Source: Candidatus Omnitrophota bacterium
GTDB taxonomy: Bacteria; Omnitrophota; Gorgyraeia; Duberdicusellales; 4484-171
Direction: 5' to 3'
Length of the DNA: 64,000 nucleotides
Assembly: GCA_021735655.1 (NCBI GenBank)
Contig: JAIPGM010000001.1
Coordinates: forward strand, 64,001-128,000
The position numbers and the translations under genes were made by a program. The notes beneath the pieces were generated by a model. That model saw only the letters and a program-made list of their open reading frames with translations, ran no database searches and had not been told where the DNA came from. Shown here in pieces: positions 3,001 to 64,000 of the stretch. The first letter of the stretch is position 1. Every line of letters starts with the position of its first letter.

Positions 3001-6000
3001 ATAGGCACAAAACTAATTGTTCCGGGATTACGCGATACGCGCAATCTTTCTAGATCGTGGTTTATGGAAGAGCAGGGTGGAAAGCAAGTATTGCTTACGC
3101 CAATGAATCTTACAGCCAAGATGGTCGCTGAATCAGCTCGTCTAGTTAAAGATCTCTCGATCATGATGCCGCTTTTGCCGCATGTTCAGAATTATCTTTA
3201 TGAAAATAGTAGTGGTTGGAATTTTACTGATACGCTTCTTGGTGAGATGTTTGATATCCAGAAAATGCCGTCTGAAGTTTCCCGAGATGTCGTTGCTGCC
3301 ATTGAGGCCCTAAAAAAAGATCCATCTAAGGTAGATACCTTTATAAAGGAAAACATTAAAGATTCAGCTACCCGTGAAGCCTTAAGAAATAAGATCGATT
3401 TAATTAATAAGTCTTCTTTAGCTAATAAAAATCGCGAGATAAGAGAGTTAGTGATATCTACTTATACTGAAGATATGTTAACTGCTAGAAAAATTTCTAG
3501 TCATGGTATCGCCCGGCAGGCAATGGAATTAGGCCTTGATCCTAATGCTCCAAATACTTCGCTTTGGGATTTGCAAAAAAATATTGGAGTTGAACAGTTA
3601 AGAAATCAGCTTGATATTACAACTGGCCCAGAGCGTGAGCACATCTTGCAACAGATTAAAAACTTTGAACAAGCAACACCGTTTGAGTACAAGCTTAATG
3701 TGATGTCAAATTATTCATGGCAAGGTGCAATAACTGCTATGTACTTTGGTCCGACCATGCATTTTATAAGACCGATTTTAAACCCCGGTCTTAGTAAAAT
3801 GCCAGGCTTAGGTGAGTTTCAGTCGTTAGTTCAAGATTTCTTTGGTGATGGAGCTTTTATTGGCGATACGATGAGGAAAGTTGGTATAGACAGTATACCA
3901 TATATCGGAAAGCCAGTTGTTAACGCTGTTGGTAGGGTTATTGAATTCGGCGTTGAAGAAAATTTACGAGAAGTTGTCACTAATCTAGCATTTAGACAGG
4001 CCTTTGTTCAGATCGGCGGGTTTTTAGCTCCTCCGAGAAGAATGGATTATGCTTCTAATGCTGACTATTTTAGGGCTCAATCAGTTTATCAGCAGGCAAT
4101 GGAATGGATTGAGGAATCATTTGACGGTAAGGGGGTTTCGTTTGCTAGTGTCGCGGCTAATCTTAATTTAAATATTCCCACTCAAGCTCTTCAATCGCCA
4201 GGTAGTCCGACTAGTTCAGCTGTTTACGGTAGTGGAACCAGCCCTTTAAATAACGGCCGTGAATTAGCCACAGAGTTACTTACAGCTGAGGCAGATTATA
4301 CTGGTTATCATGATCCAAGTACAGTTGATATACAAACTGGTCCGGGAAGTTTTGCAACTTTGGCTGATCTTAGCTTGCCTTCATCAGGAACTCCAGCTGG
4401 CACTTCAGACTCAGCAAAAATAGTTTTAGTTCGTGGATTAACTAGGCAAACTGGTCAAGCTGACTTTGTTAATCCGGTTACCGGCGAAATTGGCATTGAT
4501 GCTTCCTTAGGAAAATATGATGCTTCTACTGGAAGGATAGCTCTTACCGATCAAGGTGGAGTAGCCGCACAACATGCTGCGGCTGAGTTTAGGGCGCACA
4601 GGGAAAACGCATCTAGAAAGGGTGTTTCATTAGAGGATTATAATACTTGGTTAGATAGTAATCCAACTGTGGCAAGAACAATCCATGATGGGGTTGTTTC
4701 TGATGGAGCCGTAGCACCGAGAAGTAATTTTGGTCTTTTTGCAACGCCGGTAGCTGATATTGTTGTTGAGGTTGGCGATAGACCAATAAAGATGAAGGGA
4801 ATAAAAGCTCCAGCTACAGCCGCAATTAATGGGATTTGGTCACTAAGCAGTGACAAGGAAAGAGTCACCACTTTAGATGGTTTAATTGGTTTTGTCAAGA
4901 GAGCGGTTATTCGAGATAAGGCTGCTGAGGTAAAGCTTAACACTGGCAGTGGTCAAATAGTCTTGACTGCTGACAATTTAATGGAATTAGAGATTTTAAG
5001 GGAACGTCTGGTTAATGTTCAAGGCAGTGTTAATACGGATGAGTTAATCAATAGAGCCCGTTATTCACAAGATAACGCGCGCCGTCTGGCTGCTCAACAG
5101 TCTTTAATTGAGACCCTTAACAATGATCAGCTATCAACACTTATTTCTGGAGAAGCAGTCGGTCAGTTAAAAATTGATTTTCTCCAGGAAGGTTTAACTC
5201 GAGCTATGGCTGGAAGGCCGAGTCAGCTAAGAAGAAAGATAGTTGGTGATGCTTTTGATAGATTAGGTAGTCGCTATAGAGATTTACCGCATGGGCTATG
5301 GTCTTTTTATCATTCTTTCCGATCAGCAATGAATCGGACTGAGTTCTATATGCATAAGGCTCAATTTAGATCTGACAGTGCACGTATAGATTTAGTTCAA
5401 AGGATTAGTGATTATCAAGATAGTCAATTCGGCCAAGGCGAGAGCAGCAGCCAAACTACGATTGCTTTGCAAGGTGTCTTACCTTATTATAGCCGTTATT
5501 TAAGGCGCGATGCTAATCGTCGCTTCTGGGCCCAGAAAGCTAACTCTGGTTTAGATTCTTATGGTCGCCTGTCACCATTACGATTGTTGCAATTAGCTGC
5601 CTGGAATCGGGAACTTAAATTAGCTGAATTCTACGTGGATGGATTTAAGACTGAGTTTGATGCTGAAGGTAAAATTGTAGTTAAGCCGCTAGACCCAACC
5701 AAAGATATAGCTTATGCTTTGGTCGGACGTAATGGAAGAGATTTTGATACTCCAATGCGCTGGGTTGAATGGCGGGCTGGTGATAAGTTGCAAGATTTCA
5801 TTTTCAGGTATGACCTTAAGGCTGATAAATTGCTTGAGTGGGCTTTTTATAAGGCAACGGATAATAGTGGATTGAAAACTTTAAGAAAGGCTTTAGGTCA
5901 TAGTGATGACCCTTATCCACCAATAGTTATGGAAATGAGCCAGCATTGGGGTGATCTTGATGATGACCCTGTTATTGCCCGTAAAAATAAACAAATTAAA

Positions 6001-9000
6001 GTTGCTAAGGTTTTTGAACCTGATTTTATTAGTGTTCCGGGCGTAGATACTCGTCGTCAATGGCCCATTGGCAAAGGACTAACCTTAACTCAAATCGATG
6101 ATAGCTTATATCAGTTAGAGGGAACATCTGATTCAGGAGAAGCGATTGACGAACCTATTGATTTTTCTGTTATAGGTAGTAGATCTCTAGAAGTGACAGT
6201 GGGCTCTGAAACTATCAAATTTTCTCGAGCTAAAAATAATGCTGCCATTGTAGTTACTAAAGCAGGAAAAGAAAGCAAGCTAACTGAGCACAATGTTCAG
6301 CTGTCTTTAAAGGTTGATGTTGATGGTAAAGAAGAAGAGATCTCAGTGACACTTGCAGAAATAGCTAGAAACGATAGCCTTTACCTTATATATCCTAGTC
6401 AGGCTCGAGGATATGATATTACAATTATTCATCGCAAGATGGGCGGACATCAGCTAACCATAAGGCCTTATGCCATTGATGTTTCTGGTAGTGATGATTT
6501 ATCGGATGTTGGTCCTCGTAGTTTGGTTGAAGATTGGAAAGATGTTTTACCTGAAGCAGAAGAGGCAACTGATAAACCTGGATTTAAGAAAGAAGCTGAT
6601 AAAGATGGTATTTTAGCTAGCTTAGAGGCCATCAGAGATGATGCAATGGCTGGCGATCCCGACGCTAGAGAAGCTTGGGGTCAATTAATTGATGATGGTG
6701 TGGCGGCTGGTCTTTGGGAATCTGCTAAAAAAGGTCCTAAATGGGATGGTTCTGGTCCGGCGATTAGTAGTATTGGAGAAGGTGACAATGGATCTGAAAA
6801 CCTAAGTATAGCTGGCAAATGGTCAAAACATCAAAAGATTAAGCAGATCGAAATGATAGTTCGTCTTAGTGATGGCCAGGAAGTTTCAGTTCCAGTAACA
6901 GTGTTTTATATTGAAGGTTTAAGAGCAAGCCATGTTGGTTTTTATGACGGAAGACCTTCTATATACTTAACTTACTATTCTGACTATTCACATGAGCTCG
7001 GTGAAATGCAGCGGCATTTACAGGCAATGGCTGACCTTGATTTATCAGCTACTAGCCGGACGGATATTGAGGAATATTATAGTAAGCTCACTCCTGAAGC
7101 CGCACGAGCTATCCATGATCAGGTTATTGGCGAGGCTATTGATGGTCTTATTAGTCAAGGTATTTTGCCGGGGAAGGATCCTTTGGCTGAATATGAGAAG
7201 TTTGTAGAGTTAAGGCATGCTCGTGAAGACCTTGAAAGAGCAACAACCAGTGAAGGTTTAGCTAAAGCTCACAAGAGGTTAAATGATTTATCTTTTGAGG
7301 CTAGTGATATGGGCATGAAGCCTAGCCGTGTTTTAGCAGTTGAAGCTGGAGTTGATCAAGAGCCGTCAGATAGCCAGACTAATGATAGCCCGTTTGTTCC
7401 TTCTAATCGCATACCTATGATACCGGGCTCTTCTTCACCAGTTGGCTTACCTAATCCTGTTCAGACTCCGCTTGGCCCAAAAGGACTTTCGCCTTTATCT
7501 ATTATTAGAAGGACATCAACTTTTATTACAAATTTAAGGGGTTATCTGGGTTTATCACCGGCTATAGCTGCTGAAGTAGGCGCTGTGCCGAGTGACAGTA
7601 GAAGACAAATAGATGCTTTAACAGCTAAGATTGACGATGAGAGTGATATAAGCTTTGGAAGATCAGCGAATTCGCCCGGCAAGACGGTGGTCCATGCCGT
7701 AATTGCCTTTGTACGGCGATGGATCAATTTTACAGAGGGCAAAATAGCAGTTGGATTTACAAATTTTGGTCATAAATTTGACCAATTTGAAAAAAGAATC
7801 AGCTCTTTATTAGGAAAAATAGGCAGAAATGCCACTTCTGAAAGCGAAAGAGGTGTATCTGGAAGCGCTAGGAGTGTATCTAGAAACGGAAGCCAGGCCG
7901 GAGTAGCTTTAGACAACGGAAAGGATTTAGAAGTCAAAGCTAACCCTGAAGATGGCCGCAGACCGTTAAGAAGAGCTGAGAGTAAGCTTATAGCAGGAGT
8001 AGATAGCATACCTAATAGTAGGGATGCTGAAGAAACTCAAGCTGAAGAGATTGGCTTGGGTGGTAATGGCAGTGGTTCACAAAATGGTGGTCAAGGAACT
8101 TTAGGCGGTTCGTCTATAGAGATCGAACTACCTGTAATTTTAGATTTACGACGTCTTCATGAATCCTTCAGACCAGTAGTAGTTGGCCATAATGCCTCAA
8201 AGGCTCAGGCTCCGCCTGCAAATTCAAGAAAACAAGCAAGTTTAATTTTCTATACCCACCCAATAACTGTACTTGCTTTAGGTTTTATCTTTTTAGGCTT
8301 AAAAATTCCTCAACTTTTACCAATATCCATATTAATAGCTTTAGGTTTATTAGCAATATTGCCGCTTTCTCGGATTCTACCAAACGTGGCCGGTGGGTCC
8401 TTGAGAGCGGCTTTTGATTTAAATCAATGGACCCATCCTACTGTCGAAGTTGCCTCTCCATCAACCTTCCTGGCAAGTGGGTCCCGTAATAATAGTTCCA
8501 GTAGCTCAATCCACACCGATAAGGTTGCCTCTCCAACTTCTAAATTGGTTGTTGGGCTTTCTGGAACTAGTCTTAATAGAGGGGTAAGTAGTAATAGTAG
8601 CAGTAAAACAGAACAAGGGGGTGCAAGATGGTCAGTAACATCAGATCGCTCAGGTTTCAACACTTGGTTGTGGCAACCGATGGAACGATTTTTGCATCAG
8701 CTAGAGACAGCTTTGACCGCATTGAGAACTACATCGTCAGCCGTTTTGGAGATGTTAAGCGCCAGGTTAACACGCGTTTTGAACCGGTTAGATCGGATGA
8801 GGCAGGATGGATTAAGAACCTTATCGGAGTTCCTCAGACGATTCCGATCTATCGGGCAAAGAACATTAGCGTTAGCTAGCGCTGAGAGAGGGTCCGTGGC
8901 AGGACAATTTTCTAAGGGGGTCCGTGGTAGACCACTCGATAATGGCCGAGCTAAAAGATTAGCATCTCGAGCTTTGTCAATAATTACTGCTTTAGCTGTT

Positions 9001-12000
9001 TTAGGTTCAGCTAATGTTGTTCAGGCAGCTGAAGCAGGTCAGGCAAGTGATAGCGAAGTAAATGTGGGGTTAGTTTTAGCAGTTGTTTTTGCGGTAGCAG
9101 CAGTTTTAGCAGGAATCAGTTTTAGAATTTATGCCGGACAGAGGATCAAAGATATTGAATCTAAAACTGGAATCCAAGATAGCGCAAGAATTACTAGAAT
9201 CAGAGCAATAATTGAAGAGTTAAAACAAGAAGCTCTCAGGTTAGCTCAAGTCGCTCGAGAAAATGCGATGATAAAGGTTCTAATAGCACCTCAGGGTGAC
9301 CCATATAGAAGACTTAGTGCTTCTGAAATAGAAAAATTAAGAGCTAACCAGAAACCAGATGTAGAGTTGAGATTGTGGGATGTAACTGTGAGCGGAACCG
9401 GAACCGTAAGAATAATTTATGGTTTTAGCGAGGATAGAGTTGATTTCATAGTCATTGCTACCGATGGCGTTGTTCGAAGACAAAGTTTACCACGCGATTA
9501 TGTAGTTGATTCTATTGTAAGCGATAATGTAATTGTCGATTTATATCGTGGGAACCTCAATACTCAGCGAATCATAGAACATAGCATATATCAACGCTTA
9601 ACATCAATTATTGGTAGCTACAACGCAGAATTAGAAGCTGCCCTTGAAGAGGCTGAAGCTAATTCAAAGCAAGCTAAAGAACTATTAGACAGTAACCAAA
9701 GACTATCAGCTCGTGCCATTCGTGCTAGAGCTCGTCAAGCTGCTAGCTTAGCCGGAGCAGCCATTGATAATGCTACAACCTTAATTGAAATCGCCATCTC
9801 ATTGAATGTAGCTAGATTAAGAGCTCGAGCTAAAGTCTTAGAGAGAGAAGCTCAGGCTACTTTAAGACAAGCTGAAAATAAAATACAGAGACCACTTGAT
9901 AATGGTCGAGTGAAAAATGAACCATTAATAGGTTTTAGTCCTAATGGTTTTCATGAAAGTAAACTATTTACAATAATAACGCTAGGTTTGCTTTTATTAG
10001 CCGTAGCAGCAACAGTGACCTATCCGATTTACGCGTTAATGTATTTATCAATACCGCTCGGTGGAACTATCATTCTTTATGCATTGCTCGCTTCTGCGGC
10101 AGTTTTCTTTTCTATTAATTTTATTAACCTTCTTAATAGGATTGAATATTATCTTTTAATCAGTCGAGCACCACAAGCTGAACAAAGTCTAATTAAGGCA
10201 AGGAACTATGTAGAATTTCAGGATGCAGTCTATGCAATAGCTAGAGAGGCTGGAATTAGCATTCCTCATATAGATAGTATAGGCCAAGCTGAGGTTATTA
10301 TTGATAAAGTTACTGCGTCGCTTGAAGCTAGGGATTTAGATAAAGAAAGAGTTCAGGGAATAAGAACAGCTTTAGAGATGTTATTTTTAGGCGATGGTTT
10401 TGCTTTCGATCTTTTCGCTGCAGCCGTCTATATGATATCTTATCGAGACGAAAATAGTAGGTATCCAGCTTGGGTAAGCGGGTATCAAGAGAATGTTGGA
10501 AGAGTATACTATTCCAATCATCGTAAAACTCGTTCTCATTTGGGAAGTTTCTATCCTTGGTTGAGCATTCTACCTCATGAAGCCATGCATGCATTTTTAG
10601 CTAGAGCTAATTTAATTGATGGCGGAGCGATCGGTGAGGAGATCGCTACCAAAGCTGCTCGTATGAGCGAAAACGTAATAATTAGAGAGGTAGTTTCACC
10701 GTCAACCGCTTGGGAATCTTACCTGAGAAATCATTGGGGAGAAGTTCAAGATGGCTATTCTCATGATGGACAAGAGGTAGAGGTATTAAATATCAGTTCA
10801 ATGGCCCTACGAGGAATTGCTTTAATTCGTTTTATTAGAAATTTACTTAGCTTGAGGCTATTTCAATTGAGAGAGCTAGCATCTTTAGCAAGAGTTATAT
10901 TATTAGGTACACCGAATACAACTCTTGGTTTAGCATTTGCGCTTGATAATGGAAAGAAACCTACTCGAGTATGGAAAAGAATGCCTAGTTTGCAGACGGT
11001 TTATGAAACAAGAGGCAACAGAATTGACCGTTTTTTCCGAGCCATAATGTTAGCTGAGACTTTTGAACAAGAGGAAAAGGCTGTTAGACTAGCTAAGAAA
11101 ACCCTTAACTCAGATGATTATCTCAAATTAATGAAAAGAATTATGGCTTCAGTTGAGGTTGTCGCTGATGATGATCAGACTGATAGTAGAGCAACTCCGC
11201 TCGACAATGGCCGTTCAAGAAGGGTAATACCTAGAACCTTATCAGTAATTGTTACCTTAGTTGTTTTAGGTTCAACTAAAACAGCCTTTGCTTCAGGAGC
11301 AGTCGCTGCCGGCTCAGCAACAGTGCCTTTTTGGGGTGTAGTTGCTATGATTGTTATGGGGCTAGCTTTTGCATATATGTTTGGTTTTGTAGTTTATAGT
11401 ATGATTCGTAGTGCCAATATTGGCGGCCGAGATGAAATTAATGAGTTAAGGGATCGGGTTAGAGAGTTAGGTGGAAGCAAAGCTTTAAGAGAAGCCGGAA
11501 CCCCTGAAGAACTTATTGGAAATCTAAACAGTAAAGGCCAGGTTAGTGAAAACGAAATAGAAGGAGAGCTTGATGTAGTAGAAGCTCAAATTAGGAACAT
11601 TGAAGAAAGTAATAGTTCAAGTTGGTCCCAAGATCAGTTAGTTAGCTTAGAGGGCTATAGAGATGAATTAAGAAGAGAACTACTTGAAGCACAAGAACGA
11701 TTAAGAGTTTTAGAAGAAGAAATTGCTGGAGATATTCGTGCTTTTGAAAGAGCTCATGAATTAAATGTACCTTATGCAGCAGATGGTGATTTAGAAGAAG
11801 CTCCTCAGCCAAAAACTGTAGTTGGTAGAACACTCAGATTAGCTGGTCAAATTGCTAAGGTAGCCGTGGTAGCTACATTTGGCATAATGGTTATTGCATC
11901 TCCGGCTACCAGTTTTGCAGGATCTACCTTTGGTCAGTCGGCAGATGGTTTGGCTATGGACCATAATTCAGATATGGATGATCAGGATATAGACATGGAT

Positions 12001-57000: not shown

Positions 57001-60000
57001 AGTAATCGTCAGCGTTTAGAAATACTTTCTCAAGATAAGGGAGAAATTGGTGCAGTAGCTCAAATTTTTATTCAGAGCATTAGTGCGCCTTTAGATAATG
57101 GAAAGAAACTTGACCCTGAGACCGAACTTAGAAGAATCGCTCAAGAGTTAGATGATTTAGGCTTGGGCCAAGCTGATGTCAGTGACAGTATTGATAGAGT
57201 AAGGGTTGCTTTAGGGCAAGGTTGGTATATACCGGAAAATAGGCCGCATATTGAAATTCTAGGCGATGAGCAGGGGAGGCTTTTACGTGCCTTAGATGAA
57301 ACTCATCTGCATCAAGAGCTGCCGGTAGTCGGAGCCGTAGATACAATAGTTGCAAAGTTGTGTGGTTTTTGTTTTCGTTCGGCTGACGTAGTAGTTTTAT
57401 CGCCCAGAGGAAGGAGAGGTTTCTTTATTCGTCGGGCAATTAAACCATATGAGGGTTATCTTACTTTGGTTGGCGGCGGGGTCCAGAGCGGTAGTTATGA
57501 AACAACCGCAAGAATGGAGATAAGAGAAGAGTTGATTTTAAGCAGATTACCAACTAATCCAATACAGATTATTAGTTATTATATTGCCGTAAAGCACATA
57601 TCTTATCTTAAAGGTGCTTTCTTATTATATATTTTAACTGATGATGAATTAGGCCAAGCTAGGGAATCCAGTCGCCGGGTTAATTCAGCTAAGGTAAATA
57701 AGAGCCGAGGAGAATTTATTGCTTGGTTAGCTCAACAGCGCGATCAGGAAGATGGTACTGGCGAGGCTTTTGGAATTTATGAGATTGATCTTGAAACAGT
57801 ATTTGATCGTCATCTACCGAATCCTGAAGTAGCTGGCGAAATTGGCCTAAGAATTCCTGAAACTTACGTTGGTGGTGAAGTTGAAGAAGAGTTTGCCGCC
57901 TATACCCCGGATATATTACAGTTATTTATGCAAGATCCAGCAAGGATAGCCAGAGCTAAAGAGGAATCCTTGAAACTCATCCGAGGACCTTTAGATAATG
58001 GAAAAACCCAGCAAGAAAGGAAACGTATTTTAGCTAGAGCTCGGTCAATCAGAAATACCAACCACGATATTGGTAATCATCTAAATGGTTTGCTAGGCTG
58101 TTTGAAAGAATCCAAAGAAATTGAAGAAGCTTATGCGATTTTTGGAAGATTTTCCGCAGACATTGCTGGTTTAAGAAAGTATCGCGAAGGTGGCGAGGCT
58201 GTTACCGATCAAGTTCTTGATGAAATAGCTCAGGCTTGTGATCATTGTGAAGCATTATTGGAAGAGTTACGTGATAAACTTCTTGAATTTGAATTTATCC
58301 GGACTATGGGTATTGACGATTTGGGTGAATGTTTTAGTCATATGGATCTAGAAATAAGAGGGTGGTTAGTCCAGGCAACCAAAGATGCCTATGATGTAGT
58401 TTTAATGTTGTTACATGACGAGATAGCCATTTTTAGTGCAGTTGAGGCAATAACTTTTATAACTCGAAGAGAGGCTAGCGAAGAAGAACTTGAGGTTCCC
58501 GAGATAAGGGTCAATCCTGAAGGTAGTCGAGTTATAGTATCGATAAACAGTCGTTACTTTTTAGGAATTTTTATGAATATCATCAGGAATTCTTGCACAG
58601 TTTGCAAGGGAATGTCTGGTCCGTTTGCTTCGATTGAAATTGATGAATCAGGAGAAGAATTTAAAGTTGTGGTTCGCGATAACGGACCGGGCATGAATGA
58701 TGCTCAGGTGCATCAATACAATCTTCAAGCGGTCGGTGATCTAACGGCTGTTACCGGAGTAATTTCTTCAAAGCCAGCCAAGGTACATGCTGAATCAAGT
58801 GGCTACGGCCGAGGCCTAAAAGAAGTTATTGCTGATATTGTTTTGCTTGGTGGGCGTACTTTTGTTGAGCGGTTATCAGCCGGAGGCATGCAAACCGTAG
58901 TAATTTTACCGAAACGACAAATAAAGAAACCTTTAGATAATGGCAAAAAATCTTTAAAATCTCGCCTAGCTGAAGCCGATACAGTAATTATTCCTACGCT
59001 GGTTGGTTTAACTGAGGGTCGAATTACTATGATAGTAGGTGATAATTTTGTGTCTTCTTACCAAACAGTTTTAGAGTTTTTAAATAGTGAAAAAACTAAC
59101 ATAACCGCTCTAAAGACAATATCAGGAGTTTTAAGTGAATTTTTCTTCGACGGTCATCCTAAGGCGGTAATGGTAGGTGAAGCTGATCTAGAGGCGGTGG
59201 GTATAGTTTTACCTGAGAGTGGAATAATTGATCCATCCAAAGATAATGTAGACATAGATGATTTAAGACAAAAGATCCTTGAGCTGCGTGATGTCATTGC
59301 CGGGTTTCCTTTAAGTCAAGTTGAAGAGTTTGAACAACATAAGTTTGATACCTTGGCTGACAATAAAAAACAAAAAATAGACGAAGATTTAACCGTATAT
59401 GCTAATACTCATATCTTTGACCTTAGATTAAGGGCAAAAAATGAAAGTGAAGTTGTGGTAAGAACTTTTAAGAATTCTCCGGTTGTTTCAGATCAAGTAG
59501 AGATTTTGGGAGTTGGCCCGGAAACTATCCAAACATGGTCAAGAATAATAGAAGCTTCAGAATTAATTGCTCTTTTTGGCCAGTTCCCTCAAGAATTAAC
59601 TCCAGCCTTAGAGGATAAAGTTATAGTGAAAGTTGCTGTTCCGCTTGATAACGGCCGGAATAGTTCAGCTGATACAACTAACCAGCTATTAACCCAACTT
59701 GAGCAAATGGCTCGCGGTCAGATTCCTGACGCTCAAGCCAGTAAAATAATTAAACAACTTTTAGTTTTGGGTACCGAGCGTTCGGATGTCCAAAGAGCTT
59801 TATTACTTTACAGTCGCCTGAGAGAGAAGCCACTCGATGGTTTATTTGATAATTATCATATAAATGGTGTGCCGGTAAGATTAGCAAGAGATCAAGAAGT
59901 CGTTTATATGACTAGAACCGGAAAAACTTTTAAACAGGTTTTTGGTGGTAAAAATATTATGGTTGTCGAAGTCCATCCGGATGACGCTATGCTTAATTTT

Positions 60001-63000
60001 GGTGATCTTGCCTTTGCTTTAAAAATGTATGGCGATAGTAATACTATTTTTGCTATGGCCATACCTGATCCAGCCGGAGTTTCTGATTATCAAGTAGATT
60101 TTATCAGAGTCCTTTACCTGATTAGTGAGTTTCTTGCGTTCTCAAAATCTGGGGATTTCGTAACCAAAATTGCAGAAAACCCTTTTATGAATACGAGTTC
60201 AAATGTATTAAAGTCTTGGATTCGGAGCGCTGAAGCTAAACTTGGGTCTGATTGCATGGCTCAAGGTGAATATGTAGATTTAGAGATAAACTTACCGATT
60301 GATCAAGCAGCTCGTGATGAATCTGGCCGATTGTTATCATTTGAGACTATATTCCAGGAACCAACTGATGAAGATCAAGAAAAAGTAGATAATTTAGTTA
60401 AGCAGCATTCCGATAGAGATATCTATATAGTTCCATCTCCGTTTTCGAATCATCCGCATCATCGAGCAATAGCCCGGATATTTTTATCAGCTATTTATCA
60501 ATTTAATCCGAATGCCCAGATATTTCTTTGGGATGATGATTTAAGTTTTAGACAGCATCGAATGAGAGCAAACACATTCTATTTCTATAGTCAATTAGAA
60601 CAGGCTCATAAGGAGAAATGGATTGAAAAAATTTATGATTCTCAAATTCTAAGAAGAGGTAAGGGTTTTTATGCCCAGCGAGCCGAACAAATAGCTTTAG
60701 CTGCGGCTGATGCTGGATTTAAAGAGATGATATTTGAGCGTGGCGATGTAGAGGCTTTCCTGGTTATTTTGGCCCATGAGCTTTTTTACGCTGAAAGATT
60801 ATTAAAGGTGAACATTGTTGAACGGCCAGCAGGTAGGCCTCTCGACAACGGTCGTCAATCAGATAAGGTTCAAGAAATAAGCTTTAGTGATAGAGTAGCG
60901 CTCAGACTTTTAAGCTTCTTGCATTTAATTAGAATGCCTACTTGGATTGTTTGGCATCTTACGCCAATTCGTTTTCGGGGTGGAATATTAGTTAGCGGCG
61001 GTGATTGTGCTGGTCTTAACCCAGTTGCCGGATATCTTTCGCGTTATCTTTGGCAAGATGGCCATATGCTAGCCGGGGTTAAAAAAGGCTTAGATGGCTT
61101 GATTAAAGCTGACCCAACTTCTGAGATTGTTCCAATAACTAGGGGAATGGCTAAGATTATGCCTTATGCTCCGAGTTTTGAATTTGCTTCAACCCGCAGG
61201 AATTTAAAAGAGGGAGAAGCTGAGACCGCCGTAGCCTTAGATAATATCCGTAAGAATTTTGGATTTTTAGTAGTTATTGGCGGCAATGATCATCTTTATG
61301 AAGCTAAAAAATTAGGTGAATTATTGGAGAAGGCCGGGTTAAAAGTTATTGTAGTTGGCGTGCCTAAAACAATTGATGCTGACACTTTATACACTAAACC
61401 CTTAGGAATTGAGTCAGCTGCCCAAGCGGTGAACGAATATGTTTATCGGGCAGCAGCTTTACCGGGGTCAGGCGAAGTAGTAATTATTGAAGCTATGGGT
61501 CGGGATTGCGGTTATTTAGCAGCTCGGGCCGGAGATAGAAGAGATGAAGCGATCGCCTTACTTGGTGCCGAGTTAGCCGAAAAAGCCGAAAAAGCCAAGC
61601 CAACTATGGAGACTTATGTTCCCGAGCATCCTAAAACTGTAGCTGAAATCCGCCGCCGGGCTAGAGAAAAAATGGCTAAAGTCGGAGCAATAACTATTAT
61701 TCTTTCTGAAGGTTTTAGAATTAACCAAACAGATGATCCGGACTATGGACCATTGCTAGAGGCTAATCCAGTATTAGCTGAAATCCTTAGAGGGCTTAAG
61801 CCTGACACACAAGGAAATATTGTTATTCCACAAGGTATTGCTGCTGAATTTGTCGCAGCTATTTTAGCCGAATATAATCCGACAATAGAAGTATTAGGTT
61901 TTACACCGCGCGGGGCTATCCCGGTTGATCAGGAAAGAGAGCTTGCTTCCGGTTTTGCCCGTCAAGCTAGAAAAGCTATAGTTGAAAGAATCAGTGGCAG
62001 GGCTGTTGCCTGTTGTGATGATATTAATCATCCGGCTGATTTAGGCGTTATTGACCTTGTGCCGATAACTCGGGTTTGCGGTAAAGATGCTAAAGGAAGA
62101 TCCATCAGTAAAGATGTAGATCAAATTATGAGTTTAACTGATCAGAAAGCAGCCGGAGTGATAATTTCCGATAATCAAGAAATTATGCCGGAAGAACCAT
62201 CAGCTGAGACTATTCGGAATAAAGATCCGCCGACTACCGTTAGCGCAGTTGCTGCAACTGCAATTTCAGCCTGGGCACATCGTCGGCCTTCAATTTTTGT
62301 TATTCGCGGGCAGGAAGCTGATGAAACAGTTAATCGATTAGCAGATCTTTTAGCTGCATCAACCAATTTAGGGGTTATCTATGTACGTCAAAGAACTGAA
62401 AATTCATATCTTGTTCTTTCGCGAAATACGTCTTTATCCTTAGGGGAGGTTCTTTCTAGCGCTCACCAGATAAAAGCAGCTGTTGGCCATCTCAATGTTG
62501 TTGTTTCACCATATTTTCAAATCAGAAAGAATGATCCAGTCATAGTTCAGTTAAGCCAAGTCAGAGAAAGGCTAACTGCTGAATTATCTGCCTTAGGTGA
62601 AGCTAAGGACAATCAAGCTAAGCGAGAAGGTATAATCAAGGCTCTTGCGCCTTATCGAGAGTTAGCCTTACGTTTAGCTAATGGCGATATTTCTGATTCA
62701 GCCTACTACGAATTTAATCCAGCCTTAAATGATCTTGGTCAGGTAGTTAAATTGATACTTTCCTTAGCTGTTCCTCAGGTCGAGAATCATACAGGGCCAT
62801 TGTCCGGCATGCGGCTGACTTCTTTAGGCCGGGCTTTAGATAGAGAAGAGAGAATCTTAACTTATAAACCGCTTGACAATGGCAAATCAAAAGAAGTTAT
62901 GACAGTTTCACACTTAGCTTATCCGACAAAGGCAGCTCTTATTCTTGAATTTGGTTTTTATCATGAAATAGAGCTTACTGCGGGGTACTTTTGCCTAGAG

Positions 63001-64000
63001 AATGAAGGTTTAGAAACAACTGTCGGTTTTAGAAGATGGTCTGAGCAACTAGAAGACTACTTAGAACAACCAAAACGTGGTCAGCAAGGAAATTTAGTCG
63101 CGATAATATTTGATGTTCCAATTGGATGGATTACAAATGGTGAGCGGATAGTATGGCATCAAGATGTAGGTTCGACTTTTTTAAGTTTGTCATCGGAAAC
63201 AAAAGTGGAAGCATTACCGCAGGAATTTTTAGATAGATTGGCCGCCGAAGATGTTGAGTGGTGGGGCAAGCAAGGTTTAGAAATGAATCTGGCCGATTTT
63301 TTTGCTTTGCATTATCGCAGGGGCACCTTAGGCCATGTGCCAGCTGAAAGTCTAAATCTTGAACAAACCATACAGCGAAATGTAGCACATTATGATGAAA
63401 GTTTTCTTGAAACATTAGTTGGCCAAAAGTTAACAGCGATGAGCCAATTGGCACCTCTCGATAATGGCATCAGAAAGTCTGGCCCTCGTTCGCATATCGG
63501 AACTTCAGGGAAAGTGACGAAAGTTCAACCAGTTGCCAAAGTTGGTGATCGTGATGCTGATCCTGAAGAACTAAAGAAAGAAACCAAAACCAAAAAAAGT
63601 GAGCCAAAAGCTATTGATTTTGGTCCAGCGGTAATTGTTGAGCTTTCTCAAGAAGCGCAAAGGTTGTTGGCTGAATCGAAAGATGGCCCAGACAATCCTG
63701 ACGGAAAATCTCAAGCCCCACTTGATAATGGCGTTAATGGTCTTGAGGTGATCAGCCAGGAAGAAGTGTTTTATAAAAATATTCACGAACATTTATCTCA
63801 ACGATCAGTGCCAGCTGATCAGATAGATTTTATTATTAAGGCAATGCGCTTAAATGCGCGCCATAATTTTGTTTCGCAATTAAGTAGACCGGCAACCTAT
63901 AATTCAAATTATCCGATATTTATCGGTAATTGCATGATGTCTCAAGGTACTGGTGTTGCCTATCAAGCCGCGCTGTTAAAACTTGAATATGGACAGTATG
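1..64000 (+). CDS. Single giant ORF, partial at both ends (more than 21,333 codons inside the window). Modular 'polyprotein-like' megaprotein.
   Basis: Frame 1 translates without stops in every line I spot-checked, including 1-600, 3001, 7201, 8821-9300, 10561, 17281-17460, 36001, 47461 and 63901-64000. All 36 PLDNG-type motifs (4243 to 63718) fall in the same frame (start position = 1 mod 3). The ORF track contains no frame-1 ORF and only ORFs of 198 aa or shorter elsewhere. The translated sequence shows recognisable enzyme motifs throughout. Confidence 0.85.
8947..9063 (+). other. Internal signal-peptide-like segment straight after PLDNG (RAKRLASRALSIITALAVLGSANVVQA|AEA). Similar segments sit at 11212-11330 and 21484-21600.
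   Basis: Translation shows a basic n-region, a hydrophobic h-region of about 17 aa and an AxA-type site directly downstream of the motif at 8932. Confidence 0.5.
12121..12465 (+). other. Thioredoxin-fold domain with the active site WCGPC (12187-12201).
   Basis: Translation ...[26 protein letters not shown]...IDIDDNPEIFNKFKV... carries the canonical thioredoxin CxxC motif and matching surroundings. Confidence 0.75.
15121..15624 (+). repeat. In-frame near-perfect tandem repeat array of 36-nt units (AAEAKKVADAEK) and 51-nt units (LAAEKAAEAKKVADAEK), about 10 clean copies plus degenerate flanks reaching about 15700.
   Basis: The units tile exactly: 15190-15240 (51), 15241-15291 (51), 15292-15327 (36), 15328-15363 (36), 15364-15414 (51), 15415-15450 (36), 15451-15486 (36), 15487-15537 (51), 15538-15573 (36), 15574-15624 (51). 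Copies differ by only 0-2 nt. Confidence 0.9.
16590..17790 (+). other. Long coiled-coil-like region rich in Glu, Lys, Ala and Gln, interrupted by a Cys/Arg-rich insert at 17284-17440.
   Basis: Heptad-like charged and Ala-rich sequence, for example ELEKAEGELEALKKAKEELTGKTAETDEELKTKQAEIERLKENLKQRQ... Confidence 0.55.
17810..18130 (+). other. Cluster of transmembrane helices (FYENHPFWFFFLLLTPGYLFGIWAAI...VVIALIAVGLSLALA...).
   Basis: Several hydrophobic stretches of 18-22 aa flanked by basic residues. Confidence 0.5.
19060..19760 (+). other. ATP-grasp-like domain, first copy (VVKIADGSQGVGIAMF resembles the RimK/GshB-type motif xLKPxDGSGGRGV).
   Basis: Motif at about 19420-19470 with surroundings typical of an ATP-grasp ligase. 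Confidence 0.45.
20520..21340 (+). other. ATP-grasp-like domain, second and more degenerate copy (HKAATAYILRQAGVSMPKT...AIVKPANRSRSEGVEAI).
   Basis: N-terminal ligase-like motif plus a xVKPxxGSxGxGV-like stretch at about 20760-20800. Confidence 0.35.
21850..22536 (+). other. Archaemetzincin-like (peptidase M54-type) zinc metalloprotease module. HELGHLFGINH lies at 22375-22407, with the Cys cluster running to about 22500.
   Basis: HELGHLFGINHECGCKTCIMHQADSTEEVARTKQFCKSC fits the pattern HExxHxxG-x4-C-x4-CxM-x15-CxxC. Confidence 0.6.
22537..22653 (+). repeat. Linker cassette PLDNGKQTRQSSPSDRLEVDGASSSVAASPTSSKPLDNG. A partial copy lies at about 21700-21840, and related copies at 43636-43752 and 44563-44700.
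   Basis: Nucleotide strings shared between copies include caatcg(c/t)ctcccagcgat and gctagccctacttcttct. Each copy has PLDNG at both ends. Confidence 0.8.
23530..24450 (+). other. Polytopic membrane module, with further helices out to about 25250.
   Basis: Many consecutive hydrophobic helices (LGSLIAGLVAALPVVGLVAGALALVVVLPPAI..., LVWITGFGSLFNVFVPALVVLVAVFYLW...). Confidence 0.5.
27540..28300 (+). other. Candidate GH-A clan (GH5-like) TIM-barrel glycoside hydrolase.
   Basis: IANEINYYD (an NE-x acid/base-like motif) at about 27658, and VIISEWGE (a nucleophile-like Glu) at about 28030, spaced roughly as in GH5 enzymes. Confidence 0.3.
31500..33560 (+). repeat. Eight tandem protein domains of about 85-100 aa each. 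Consensus ...(V/I)VAANDxxVxILIDxxAP...T(L/N)...(R/K)YGYK(D/E)LxDDSL(Y/W)LFD...
   Basis: Unit starts near 31578, 31883, 32190, 32440, 32697, 32948, 33205 and 33430. The last four are also clearly similar to each other at the nucleotide level. Confidence 0.7.
37790..38900 (+). other. Polytopic membrane module, with additional helices at 36960-37100.
   Basis: Repeated hydrophobic stretches of about 20 aa (IFAISFFVFLAKYLPLAKIVAFLF..., LAIMAIVIVIVITV...). Confidence 0.45.
38554..38739 (+). repeat. In-frame tandem duplication, 2 x 93 nt (KLVAY(I/V)RKLNAVRKSDTG(K/S)VMATVWSDI(K/R)SL).
   Basis: Copy 1 is 38554-38646 and copy 2 is 38647-38739. They differ at about 5 positions. Confidence 0.85.
39900..41990 (+). 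other. GT48-family (FKS1 / callose-synthase-like) beta-1,3-glucan synthase catalytic core (40180-40600), followed by a C-terminal multi-TM region (40590-41980).
   Basis: IVGIPEHIFTASFGNEGKLLAFSDSTFANMVQRVIAMGGTRMHYGHPDSFRKRFAKRMGWTASSSKLNEDIFAGYRAIRYGKRIKFIEYRRVGKAREVKF...FGRGSGEQ matches the conserved FKS blocks I recall (...GGKLHYGHPD...LNEDIYAG...R(G)G.IKH.EY.Q.GKGRD(V/L)G...G.GEQ). Confidence 0.65.
42085..42440 (+). other. Novel HExxH domain, paralog A (HELAH at 42274-42288), ending near the SLDNG variant at 42448.
   Basis: ILAFGGSDALATNGIELNDQNLVMSPALSAPAEVRGGVLYINPNTLRGPPEQLRVIFEGHELAHFLGMDE...AFLENNSIGL is paralogous to 50560-50930. Confidence 0.5.
45583..46380 (+). other. HAD-superfamily phosphatase domain (motif I DLDGT at 45601-45615; motif IV GDSAGD at about 46195-46215).
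   Basis: ILWDLDGTLVNT ... IVGDSAGDVAAAR, spaced as expected for a HAD hydrolase. Confidence 0.7.
46790..47300 (+). other. Class I SAM-dependent methyltransferase fold.
   Basis: LRIGSLGSGDGLAIYQ (motif I, at about 46870-46895), followed by an acidic post-I loop and FDVIYLNNVLHELF (a motif II/III-like region). Confidence 0.5.
48480..49600 (+). other. UAP1/USP-type nucleotide-sugar (UDP-sugar) pyrophosphorylase domain.
   Basis: WAEPAGGRGERLS (compare LAGGQGTRLG) at about 48590-48625, and AHGHGDIH (a GHGD motif) at about 48961-48985. Confidence 0.5.
50560..50930 (+). other. Novel HExxH domain, paralog B (HEAYH at 50773-50787).
   Basis: IIALFGGRNVFDQ...LLINPNVIRGPPQYDSQLKIIFEQHEAYHLDGDDE...RFLENNSLGI is paralogous to 42085-42440. 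Confidence 0.5.
52650..53960 (+). other. PEP-utilizing enzyme domains (PPDK / PEP-synthase-like): a phosphohistidine 'mobile' domain followed by a PEP/pyruvate-binding TIM barrel.
   Basis: ETGVLHYGIAARAEGFPVLA (compare GGxTSHAAIxARExGxP) at about 52700-52750, and FGSVGSNDLISF (compare S(I/F)G(T/S)NDL) at about 53590-53620. Confidence 0.5.
54760..55100 (+). other. Pol-beta superfamily nucleotidyltransferase head domain, of the CCA-adding / poly(A) polymerase type.
   Basis: LYGGAVRRKVYDLGRFVSDYDLMA (a GGAVRD...DxD motif) at 54850-54940. Confidence 0.45.
57380..57640 (+). other. Nudix-hydrolase-like domain with a degenerate Nudix box.
   Basis: GGGVQSGSYETTARMEIREEL (57473-57535), compared with the typical GGGVEPGETPEEALRRELKEEL, sits in a context shaped like a Nudix fold. 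Confidence 0.4.
58040..58925 (+). other. Histidine kinase module: a HisKA-like H-box followed by a GHKL/HATPase_c domain.
   Basis: IRNTNHDIGNHLNGLLG (H-box) at about 58050-58100. VVRDNGPGMNDA (G1, DxGxG) at about 58665-58710. SGYGRGL (G2) at about 58801-58825. Confidence 0.6.
59950..60500 (+). other. LmbE / PIG-L-like (GlcNAc de-N-acetylase family) domain candidate.
   Basis: MVVEVHPDDAMLNFGD (an HPDD(E)-type motif) at 59961-60010. Confidence 0.35.
60940..62100 (+). other. Phosphofructokinase (PFK-A family, possibly PPi-dependent) domain.
   Basis: ILVSGGDCAGLNPV (about 60985-61025), VVIGGNDHL (about 61275-61300), VPKTIDAD (about 61360-61383), EAMGRDCGYLA (about 61493-61520). Confidence 0.65.

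Follow-up and report, generated by a model that had tools for sequence, protein, structure and literature searches.

A 64,000-nucleotide (nt) stretch of the Candidatus Omnitrophota bacterium assembly GCA_021735655.1 (contig JAIPGM010000001.1, forward strand, positions 64,001–128,000), hereafter the window, lies within a single giant open reading frame (ORF). The encoded protein contains the pentapeptide PLDNG 30 times. PLDNG is established as a functional delimiter of protein modules, and related giant proteins carry other short motifs at homologous junctions. Cleavage of the chain at these sites is proposed.

Frame +1 of the window has 0 stop codons, and the five other frames have 952–2,749 each. 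The only other listed ORF of at least 150 amino acids (aa) is antisense, 198 aa long, and located at nt 15042–15638 inside a tandem-repeat region. The giant ORF exceeds the 10,000 codons expected of a giant multi-enzyme protein of Omnitrophota. Pfam matches to 11 families form a mosaic along the chain, with unrelated enzymes side by side: thioredoxin, M54 metalloprotease, eukaryote-type 1,3-beta-glucan synthase, NAGPA (phosphodiester glycosidase family), HAD, methyltransferase, PEP-utilising enzyme, NUDIX, HATPase_c, PIG-L, and phosphofructokinase (PFK). There are 63 transmembrane-like segments. The nearest database proteins, P0001 (51% identity) and P0002, are both named Candidatus Omnitrophota. 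Among species-representative genomes, the sole related locus is L001, a contig of an Omnitrophota metagenome-assembled genome that is itself one long ORF. In size, transmembrane content, and domain mix, the encoded sequence matches an Omnitrophota "multi-enzyme" giant gene, of which the window is a part.

An initial annotation had listed 30 PLDNG sites, all in frame 1. Every coordinate is exact, 30/30 sites are in frame +1, and PLDNG is absent from the other five frames. PLDNG is the top-ranking 5-mer of the protein. Residue composition predicts 0.015 copies (Poisson P about 4e-88), which rules out a chance or compositional artefact. The copies differ synonymously, as annotated, with 27 distinct 15-nt spellings among the 30, and Leu switches between codon families (TTR in 14 copies, CTN in 16). 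Pro, Asp, Asn, and Gly codons are used in the motif as in the rest of the ORF. The Leu codon CTC, which is 3% of Leu codons ORF-wide, is over-used (7/30 vs 0.9 expected). Because of the 27 spellings and the background-like codon use, conservation is placed at the peptide level, and a nucleotide-level signal is ruled out. Purifying selection on the peptide is indicated, since the amino acids are perfect in 30/30 copies while synonymous positions are randomised. The string TAATG, which arises from GAT-AAT codons, was also rejected as a signal; it is not kept from copy to copy, and stops abound in the other frames.

A one-mismatch scan found seven variants rather than the six annotated: PLNNG (twice), ALDNG (twice), PLDNN, PLDSG, and SLDNG. 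About 1.25 are expected by chance (P = 3e-4). Most of the seven are likely genuine, although chance could account for one or two. The annotated basic residue on each side holds after the motif (K/R 23/30) and not before it, where K/R occurs in just 14/30 copies (T in 6, A in 4). Beyond the five residues, only the +1 position carries much information. The annotated density of 23 sites in 20 kb from 43.6 kb onward is reached with two variants counted; 21 canonical sites lie there. The 40-aa flanks show no relation to one another outside three small paralogous groups (a 29–36-aa spacer, a signal-peptide family, and one pair). With just these groups among 30 contexts, a repeat inherited with duplicated flanks is ruled out. 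PLDNG sites follow one another at a median distance of 284 aa across the window, or 258 aa where they are dense towards its 3′ end, which is the size of ordinary bacterial proteins.

The ORF, its sites, and the modules and peptides next to them are listed below (nt positions in the window; + denotes the forward strand).

1..63999, +, ORF in frame 1, 21,333 codons, no stop codons, runs past both window ends
4243..4257, +, variant PLNNG, aa 1415 (GTS-PLNNG-REL), plausible delimiter
7906..7920, +, variant ALDNG, aa 2636, followed by K, from the one-mismatch scan
8932..8946, +, PLDNG, aa 2978 (RGR-PLDNG-RAK), signal peptide directly after
8947..9027, +, predicted Sec-type signal peptide RAKRLASRALSIITALAVLGSANVVQA|AE, begins at +1 of the site, with paralogous counterparts at 11212 and 21484
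9892..9906, +, PLDNG, aa 3298 (IQR-PLDNG-RVK), transmembrane segments about 20 aa downstream
10939..10953, +, variant ALDNG, aa 3647, followed by KK, from the one-mismatch scan
11197..11211, +, PLDNG, aa 3733 (RAT-PLDNG-RSR), exact match
11212..11292, +, predicted twin-arginine-like signal peptide RSRRVIPRTLSVIVTLVVLGSTKTAFA|SG, begins at +1 of the site
21469..21483, +, PLDNG, aa 7157 (AAV-PLDNG-SSH), exact match
21484..21561, +, predicted signal peptide SSHRGLSIPVFLAGILTLGLTNIASA|AE, begins at +1 of the site
21823..21837, +, variant PLDNN, aa 7275, opens the metalloprotease module
21838..22536, +, archaemetzincin-like (M54) module, HELGHLFGINHECGCKTC...CKSC, PF07998 (E = 6.6e-9), candidate processing protease
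22537..22551, +, PLDNG, aa 7513 (KKT-PLDNG-KQT), exact match
22552..22638, +, 29-aa spacer KQTRQSSPSD...SPTSSK with PLDNG at both ends, paralogous to the spacers at 43651 and 44578
22639..22653, +, PLDNG, aa 7547 (SSK-PLDNG-IFG), exact match
22654..23460, +, 269-aa module of unknown family, aa 7552–7820, DGHGNCSAV and then AHAH about 100 aa on
23461..23475, +, PLDNG, aa 7821 (DKR-PLDNG-KES), exact match
23497..23511, +, PLDNG, aa 7833 (LQI-PLDNG-PKG), 7 aa beyond the preceding site
25984..25998, +, PLDNG, aa 8662 (VAA-PLDNG-KPS), exact match
30673..30687, +, variant PLDSG, aa 10225, uncertain, may be chance
42445..42459, +, variant SLDNG, aa 14149, uncertain
43636..43650, +, PLDNG, aa 14546 (THM-PLDNG-KQN), Pfam NAGPA match stops 15 aa upstream
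43651..43737, +, 29-aa spacer KQNRQSPPSDD...GPASK between two PLDNG sites, paralogous spacer group
43738..43752, +, PLDNG, aa 14580, exact match
44002..44016, +, PLDNG, aa 14668, exact match
44563..44577, +, variant PLNNG, aa 14855, opens the third spacer copy, likely a real site
44578..44685, +, 36-aa spacer KQNRQSPPSDID...GPASK, paralogous spacer group
44686..44700, +, PLDNG, aa 14896, exact match
45538..45552, +, PLDNG, aa 15180, HAD profile begins 11 aa downstream
47650..47664, +, PLDNG, aa 15884, exact match
48127..48141, +, PLDNG, aa 16043, exact match
50122..50136, +, PLDNG, aa 16708, basic stretch and then transmembrane segments downstream
50446..50460, +, PLDNG, aa 16816, exact match
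54046..54060, +, PLDNG, aa 18016, homology to relatives begins 5–10 aa downstream
54640..54654, +, PLDNG, aa 18214, homology to relatives stops just upstream
55624..55638, +, PLDNG, aa 18542, in a linker to which the structure model gives low confidence, relatives have their own motif here
55639..56460, +, module 3, 274 aa, conserved alpha/beta, present in >35 multi-module relatives
56461..56475, +, PLDNG, aa 18821, in a model segment with confidence (pLDDT) below 50
57088..57102, +, PLDNG, aa 19030, exact match
57988..58002, +, PLDNG, aa 19330, exact match
58930..58944, +, PLDNG, aa 19644, HATPase_c profile stops 4 aa upstream
59641..59655, +, PLDNG, aa 19881, exact match
60838..60852, +, PLDNG, aa 20280, opens the PFK-like module
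62869..62883, +, PLDNG, aa 20957, P0001 homology lost 8 aa upstream
63454..63468, +, PLDNG, aa 21152, exact match
63718..63732, +, PLDNG, aa 21240, exact match

The sites had been described as separating segments that resemble stand-alone proteins. This description is strongly backed by where Pfam domains and homology end, by a structure model, by the polarity of the linkers, and by signal peptides directly after sites. None of the 11 Pfam intervals contains a site, and the M54, HATPase_c, NAGPA, and HAD profiles begin or stop 4–15 aa from PLDNG sites. The M54 profile is matched up to its last position, 9 aa short of the next PLDNG. HATPase_c is matched to position 110 of 111, ending before its site as at a native C-terminus. 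The HAD DxDGT motif is placed as in stand-alone HAD proteins.

A 1,019-aa query across four modules was searched against 1.84 billion representative proteins using HMMER. There were 44 hits, each to one module only, with query ranges of about 10–195, 530–800, and 850–1010 that are bounded by PLDNG sites. Matches fall at arbitrary positions in proteins of 217–6,765 aa. Since 44/44 hits are single-module and arbitrarily placed in their targets, the modules shuffle independently. Hits to module 3 are restricted to query positions 530–800, and its alignment with 21 relatives has a core that runs from 5 aa after one PLDNG to about 6 aa before the next, with unalignable flanks. The P0001 fragment is collinear with the PFK-like module until its similarity ends at the PLDNG of aa 20957; an unrelated module follows.

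Module 3 was modelled with AlphaFold2 (AF2). The model has a mean predicted local distance difference test (pLDDT) score of 77.6, a predicted template modelling score (pTM) of 0.72, and an alpha/beta core of about 90, with both PLDNG sites within low-confidence segments. No specific structural relative was found. A second AF2 model, of the PFK module from a 4-sequence alignment, was too poor for use (pLDDT 49). Around the 30 sites, the 10-aa flanks have a hydropathy of −0.90, compared with −0.24 for the background, and 0/3,000 resamples are as polar. PLDNG sites lie in linkers that are polar throughout and, for the two modelled sites, predicted to be unstructured and accessible. The initial annotation had named a structural repeat within one fold family as the finding that would speak against module delimitation. 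The module 3 alignment, AF2 model, linker polarity, and Pfam intervals show that PLDNG is not such a repeat.

Relatives of the window comprise 47 proteins and 11 loci (L001–L011), Omnitrophota where labelled; L010 encodes P0040 and L011 encodes P0008, both counted among the 47 proteins. PLDNG is absent from the 47 proteins (110,563 aa) and from the translated ORFs checked in L001–L009. A search of homologous giant ORFs and metagenomes for the same motif, as the initial annotation had suggested, gave no second PLDNG-type protein or locus in any collection searched. Blind k-mer enrichment found a different over-represented motif in many relatives, as follows; [AG]ARLA in P0015 is listed by its count alone.

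RSEV/SEVR in L006, 10 observed, 0.11 expected
SEAR in P0040, 9 observed, 0.2 expected
SEAR in P0031, 9 observed, 0.15 expected
SESR in P0034, 7 observed, 0.14 expected
DAAM in P0008, 5 observed, 0.04 expected
TDMS in P0019, 4 observed, 0.007 expected
SSSA in L001, 5 observed, 0.08 expected
SSSA in P0007, 4 observed, 0.08 expected
ASLG in P0014 / L005, 4 observed, 0.11 expected
[AG]ARLA in P0015, 5 observed

These motifs occur in variable contexts with a pooled median spacing of 289 aa. Window PLDNG positions were projected onto relatives through module alignments. In BLAST comparisons, the relatives cover only four modules. In the clean subset of eight proteins with blindly found motifs, 16/16 homologous-module boundaries lie ≤18 aa from the relative's own motif. 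In all 18 tested relatives, 30/36 boundaries lie ≤30 aa from a motif, with some classes in this larger set (single-copy DAAM cases) assigned post hoc at junctions already seen. No Pfam domain extends across a delimiter in L006 or P0034. Because relatives show their own enriched motifs at homologous junctions, PLDNG is one form of a lineage-specific delimiter. On sequence evidence, the other classes are RSExR, DAAM, TDMS, SSSA, ASLG, and ARLA. RSEVR and DAAM are likewise conserved at the peptide level: in the L006 RSEVR copies, Arg codons come from both the CGN and AGR families, Ser is encoded by several TCN codons, and Glu by GAA or GAG, and L011 DAAM has several nucleotide spellings. A neighbour-joining tree of module 3 is star-like and gives no resolution on monophyly of motif classes.

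P0040 (L010 10001–30298, GCA_016196565.1) is a complete 6,765-aa gene with the same architecture, an N-terminal signal peptide, and 14 RSExR delimiters. It lies beside ordinary genes of purine biosynthesis, and none of the adjacent genes encodes a peptidase. The whole 10.7-kb contig of L001 (JBAYMZ010000026.1) is one ORF. It encodes three paralogous modules of about 600–650 aa with SSSA-type Ser/Ala-rich linkers between them. The modules share the start ...NRIMGG.LPLFSV..KTGQG.G.IE, which recurs about every 600–650 aa. Small-residue C-terminal tails (-RAA, -SAA, -ISA, -QSA, -HSA, -KAA) are present in many relatives, mostly of the RSExR class (P0013, P0021, P0024, P0031, P0033, P0034, P0035, P0040, P0042, P0044). 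They resemble C-terminal degradation or processing tags. DAAM-type proteins finish in -LFSYN.

Module shuffling raises the question of whether the motif is a junction scar, left by target-site duplication or cassette joining and devoid of protein function. The modules do shuffle independently and break at the motif, and the over-use of CTC hints at shared ancestry of some copies. A neutral scar would, however, decay non-synonymously, whereas PLDNG is a perfect peptide with randomised synonymous positions, and RSEVR and DAAM behave likewise. A scar is thus highly improbable.

The relatives' motifs also bear on self-cleavage at Asn-Gly through a succinimide, as in asparagine peptide lyases (inteins, FlhB/YscU NPTH, some autotransporters), which the initial annotation had offered as an alternative. 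No dipeptide forms a succinimide more readily than Asn-Gly, and both residues are invariant in 30/30 copies. Pro, Leu, and Asp are kept just as strictly, however, and in peptides the backbone breaks spontaneously at Asn-Gly only slowly relative to deamidation. Known Asn lyases need a conserved fold, whereas the PLDNG flanks are unrelated and the sites are predicted to be disordered. The motifs at the relatives' homologous junctions (RSExR, DAAM, TDMS, SSSA, ASLG, ARLA) have no Asn. Lacking a conserved folded context, and with relatives' delimiters free of Asn, the autocatalytic alternative is disfavored and considered very unlikely.

Several features suggest that the chain is cut at its delimiters rather than merely bound there. 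Predicted signal peptides with n-h-c organization begin at +1 of three PLDNG sites (RAKRLASRALSIITALAVLGSANVVQA|AE; RSRRVIPRTLSVIVTLVVLGSTKTAFA|SG, twin-arginine; SSHRGLSIPVFLAGILTLGLTNIASA|AE). In L006, the predicted twin-arginine translocation (Tat) signal TRRTFLTGLFAVGAIAITGAPIKALA|Q (TRRTFL...ALA|Q) starts 3 aa past an RSETR. Signal-peptide-like starts follow delimiters 6 times vs 1.35 expected. One chain holds cytoplasmic-type enzymes together with exported or membrane modules. Spacers of 29–36 aa have a site at each end, and two other sites are just 7 aa apart. The C-terminus of P0040 is ...RAEVR-KAA, and because this gene is complete, a delimiter trails even the last module. Taken together, the signal peptides, mixed topology, spacers, and P0040 end point to scission over mere binding.

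Under the proposed mechanism, PLDNG, usually followed by K/R, would be recognised and cut by a dedicated endopeptidase, and the specificity of this enzyme would co-evolve with the delimiter of its lineage. A recognition site co-evolving with its reader is suggested because a strict peptide in an exposed linker is swapped wholesale between lineages. The giant precursor would be cut into at least 30 polypeptides, like a viral polyprotein. Products would include soluble enzymes, and small membrane proteins that gain an N-terminal Sec/Tat signal peptide only once the chain is cut. Short spacers and, from site-poor regions, a few very large multi-domain pieces would also be released. The protease would be the M54 module or a peptidase encoded outside the window. 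The initial annotation had described a viral-type polyprotein; its module-delimiting part is strongly supported, and processing itself is the best explanation that we infer. Polyprotein-like cutting of this chain at or next to PLDNG by a co-evolving endopeptidase is given slightly better than an even chance. The broader proposal, in which Omnitrophota would make whole operons' worth of enzymes, membrane proteins, and secreted proteins as cellular polyproteins, with a lineage-specific 4–5-residue cleavage code recognised by proteases that co-evolve with it, is put at an even chance.

The main alternative is an uncleaved beads-on-a-string protein, with PLDNG as a linker element bound by a partner such as a scaffold, chaperone, translocon or SecA-like factor, or modifying enzyme. 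Short linear motifs typically occupy disordered polar linkers like those observed here, no protease is linked to PLDNG, and lineage-specific switching also fits co-evolution with a binding partner. A single uncleaved topology is nevertheless hard to reconcile with a chain in which PFK, HAD, NUDIX, S-adenosylmethionine (SAM) methyltransferase, and HATPase modules coexist with modules led by Sec/Tat signals. Double-ended spacers and a motif 3 aa from the P0040 C-terminus fit excision better. Binding without cleavage is regarded as unlikely.

Separation could also be achieved with no protease, by 2A/StopGo-like release or internal translation starts. Nascent-peptide effects on bacterial ribosomes are generally lineage-specific, which speaks for this reading. 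The sites lack the D(V/I)ExNPGP consensus, however, with no NPGP present, and no StopGo mechanism is known to operate on bacterial ribosomes. Near the sites, ATG occurs 3 times vs 5.1 expected, Shine-Dalgarno-like sequences occur 7 times vs 15.5 expected, and ATG/GTG/TTG are not enriched. DAAM sites have no upstream Shine-Dalgarno sequence. Internal initiation finds no support in these counts, and protease-free separation as a whole is very unlikely.

Other observations weigh against cleavage by a dedicated endopeptidase. Stretches of 3,400–5,900 aa have no site, yet contain several domains. Pfam searches found no recognisable peptidase domain in P0040, L006, and P0034 (complete or long proteins of the RSExR type), so an embedded protease is not general, and the searches tied no protease to the motif. 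Three of the four predicted signal peptides in the window are paralogues and together amount to about one observation, and internal signal-like segments can simply be membrane anchors. The delimiter classes differ greatly in chemistry (Gly/Asn, Arg, Met, Ser/Ala); to cut them all, a single protease family would have to shift its specificity widely, unless several families take part. Two word-index searches with site-rich queries, the HMMER search of 1.84 billion proteins, a genome scan, and a metagenome scan gave no second PLDNG-type genome.

The M54 module has PLDNN before it and PLDNG after it, where sites cluster most tightly. The archaemetzincin consensus is HExxHxxGxxH followed by CX4CXMX17CXXC (PMC3427221), and the module reads HELGHLFGINHECGCKTCIMH...CKSC, which conforms to both parts. 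PF07998 is matched with 36.5 bits (cutoff 24.4). The module also matches the archaemetzincin structures 2x7m and 3zvs in the Protein Data Bank (PDB), with the alignment reaching within 8 residues of the 2x7m C-terminus. Another member of the family, the archaemetzincin AMZ-tk, has endoprotease activity and cleaves itself (PMC4681839). From its sequence, the M54 module is only a candidate processing protease and may be simply one more cargo; the protease could with equal likelihood be an enzyme that acts in trans or one that went unrecognised. No Pfam match to a C39 (PF03412) or S8 peptidase domain occurs anywhere in the window.

The 269-aa module at nt 22654–23460 is a neighbour of the M54 protease and has double PLDNG sites on both sides. 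It has no detectable homologues and no Pfam or PDB match. Its DGHGNCSAV, with Cys at a likely helix start, and AHAH could form a papain-like or OTU-like Cys-His pair. Paralogous HExxH segments are located at aa 14092 (nt ~42274) and aa 16925 (nt ~50773), with the pattern ...INPN..RGPP...IFE-HELAH / HEAYH...FLENN. These and the other HExxH regions have no Pfam or PDB match; the pair may represent an uncharacterised zincin-like module family. At aa 3526 (nt ~10576), an HExxH motif is found at the end of a hydrophobic segment (ILP-HEAMH). Similar HExxH motifs (HELSH, HEWGH, HELTH) are present at P0017 aa 1007 and 1553, P0028 aa 4038, and L002 ORF aa 1169. These hydrophobic-segment motifs are reminiscent of metalloproteases embedded in membranes (site-2-protease-like), occur across delimiter classes, and are another possible protease candidate with no Pfam support.

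Elsewhere in the window, an FKS-type 1,3-beta-glucan synthase domain is encoded at nt 39202–40695 (aa 13068–13565; PF02364, E = 1.8e-55), an unusual family for a bacterium. It is located in a transmembrane-rich region (aa ~12,300–14,100) with about 30 transmembrane-like segments around it. Tandem Lys/Ala/Glu-rich repeats of the AEKAAEAKKVAD type with periods of 36, 51, 87, and 123 nt are found at nt 15142–15652. They supply the 5-mers next in frequency after PLDNG, and the antisense ORF at 15042–15638 is probably their by-product. A 255-nt (85-aa) unit is repeated in 3 copies with a 69% match at nt 32467–33223, and a 93-nt unit in 2 copies with a 94% match at nt 38552–38739. Two PLDNG-bounded modules at nt 47665–50121 have GC skews of −0.01 and 0.02, compared with ~0.15 elsewhere in the ORF, and may differ in origin or age. 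Within this region, a 660-aa module has a UDP-sugar pyrophosphorylase-like appearance (GGRGERL, HGHGD), with no Pfam match at E ≤ 0.05.

Omnitrophota giant proteins have been described previously, and their cleavage has been hypothesised, with "information about cleavage points" stated to be absent, a gap that according to the same paper stood in the way of analysing them (West-Roberts et al. 2023, 10.1101/2023.11.21.568195). A 2026 preprint defines class 1 "multi-enzyme metabolic clusters" as a giant-protein class (10.64898/2026.06.07.730766). Junction motifs or cleavage sites are described in neither report. The initial annotation did not recognise PLDNG as a described processing system, and PLDNG and its counterparts are absent in this context from the searchable literature. 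The giant protein family and the suggestion of cleavage are thus known, and the delimiter, its boundary position, and its lineage-specific counterparts are new within that literature. The question addressed is whether Omnitrophota giants, of up to about 147,000 aa, are single chains or are cut into pieces. PLDNG and its counterparts are the first concrete candidate cleavage sites in these proteins. An enriched k-mer per genome provides a simple rule to segment giants into modules for structure prediction and annotation, and comparing motif class with peptidase repertoire provides a handle for finding the cognate protease. If cleavage is confirmed, this would be the first case of a cellular organism using polyproteins on a large scale, ordinary metabolic enzymes included. 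Under the broader proposal, gene expression would be organised like that of an RNA virus, and the delimiter of each genome would let giants be split computationally into mature products.

The window shares with other Omnitrophota giants its Omnitrophota homologues, extreme size, many transmembrane segments, and mix of PFK, PEP-utilizer, HAD, methyltransferase, HATPase, NUDIX, and glycosyltransferase domains. It differs from giants in which C39 and S8 domains are reported (10.1101/2023.11.21.568195) in having neither, and its PLDNG delimiter is newly described. With Asn peptide lyases (inteins, FlhB/YscU NPTH) and 2A peptides, PLDNG has in common an invariant Asn, here followed by Gly, at a putative scission point. 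They differ in that PLDNG has no conserved fold and no NPTH, NPGP, or intein block, in agreement with the initial annotation for 2A and inteins, and in that relatives' junctions have no Asn. Double-glycine leaders cut by C39 peptidases likewise have Gly at the last motif position and Leu four positions before, as −1 and −4. At −2, however, PLDNG has Asn in 30/30 copies rather than Gly, Ala, or Ser, with no upstream leader helix pattern, and PLDNG is internal and present 30 times rather than once after a leader.

MARTX toxins and gingipains (RgpA/Kgp) are large bacterial multi-module proteins that are cut at inter-domain linkers. Neither the MARTX inositol hexakisphosphate (InsP6)-activated cysteine protease domain nor a gingipain domain has a Pfam match in the window. 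MARTX sites are loose (after Leu) rather than a strict pentapeptide, and MARTX toxins and gingipains have a handful of modules with toxin or adhesin cargo, compared with dozens of modules and housekeeping-type enzymes here. Gingipain processing after Arg or Lys resembles a possible fate of the RSExR class.

Viral polyproteins (picornavirus 3C, potyvirus NIa, flavivirus NS2B-NS3 plus host signal peptidase) are the closest precedent. The window differs in belonging to a cellular bacterium, in its length (>21,000 aa) and number of junctions (at least 30), in carrying metabolic and signalling enzymes together with membrane proteins, and in that its cleavage is proposed from sequence. Relatives with other motifs differ further in showing no recognisable embedded protease. 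In common with viral polyproteins, the window has a long ORF of protein-sized units, a short junction motif in flexible linkers with a consensus that differs by lineage, a protease module bracketed by sites, spacer peptides, and internal signal peptides after junctions.

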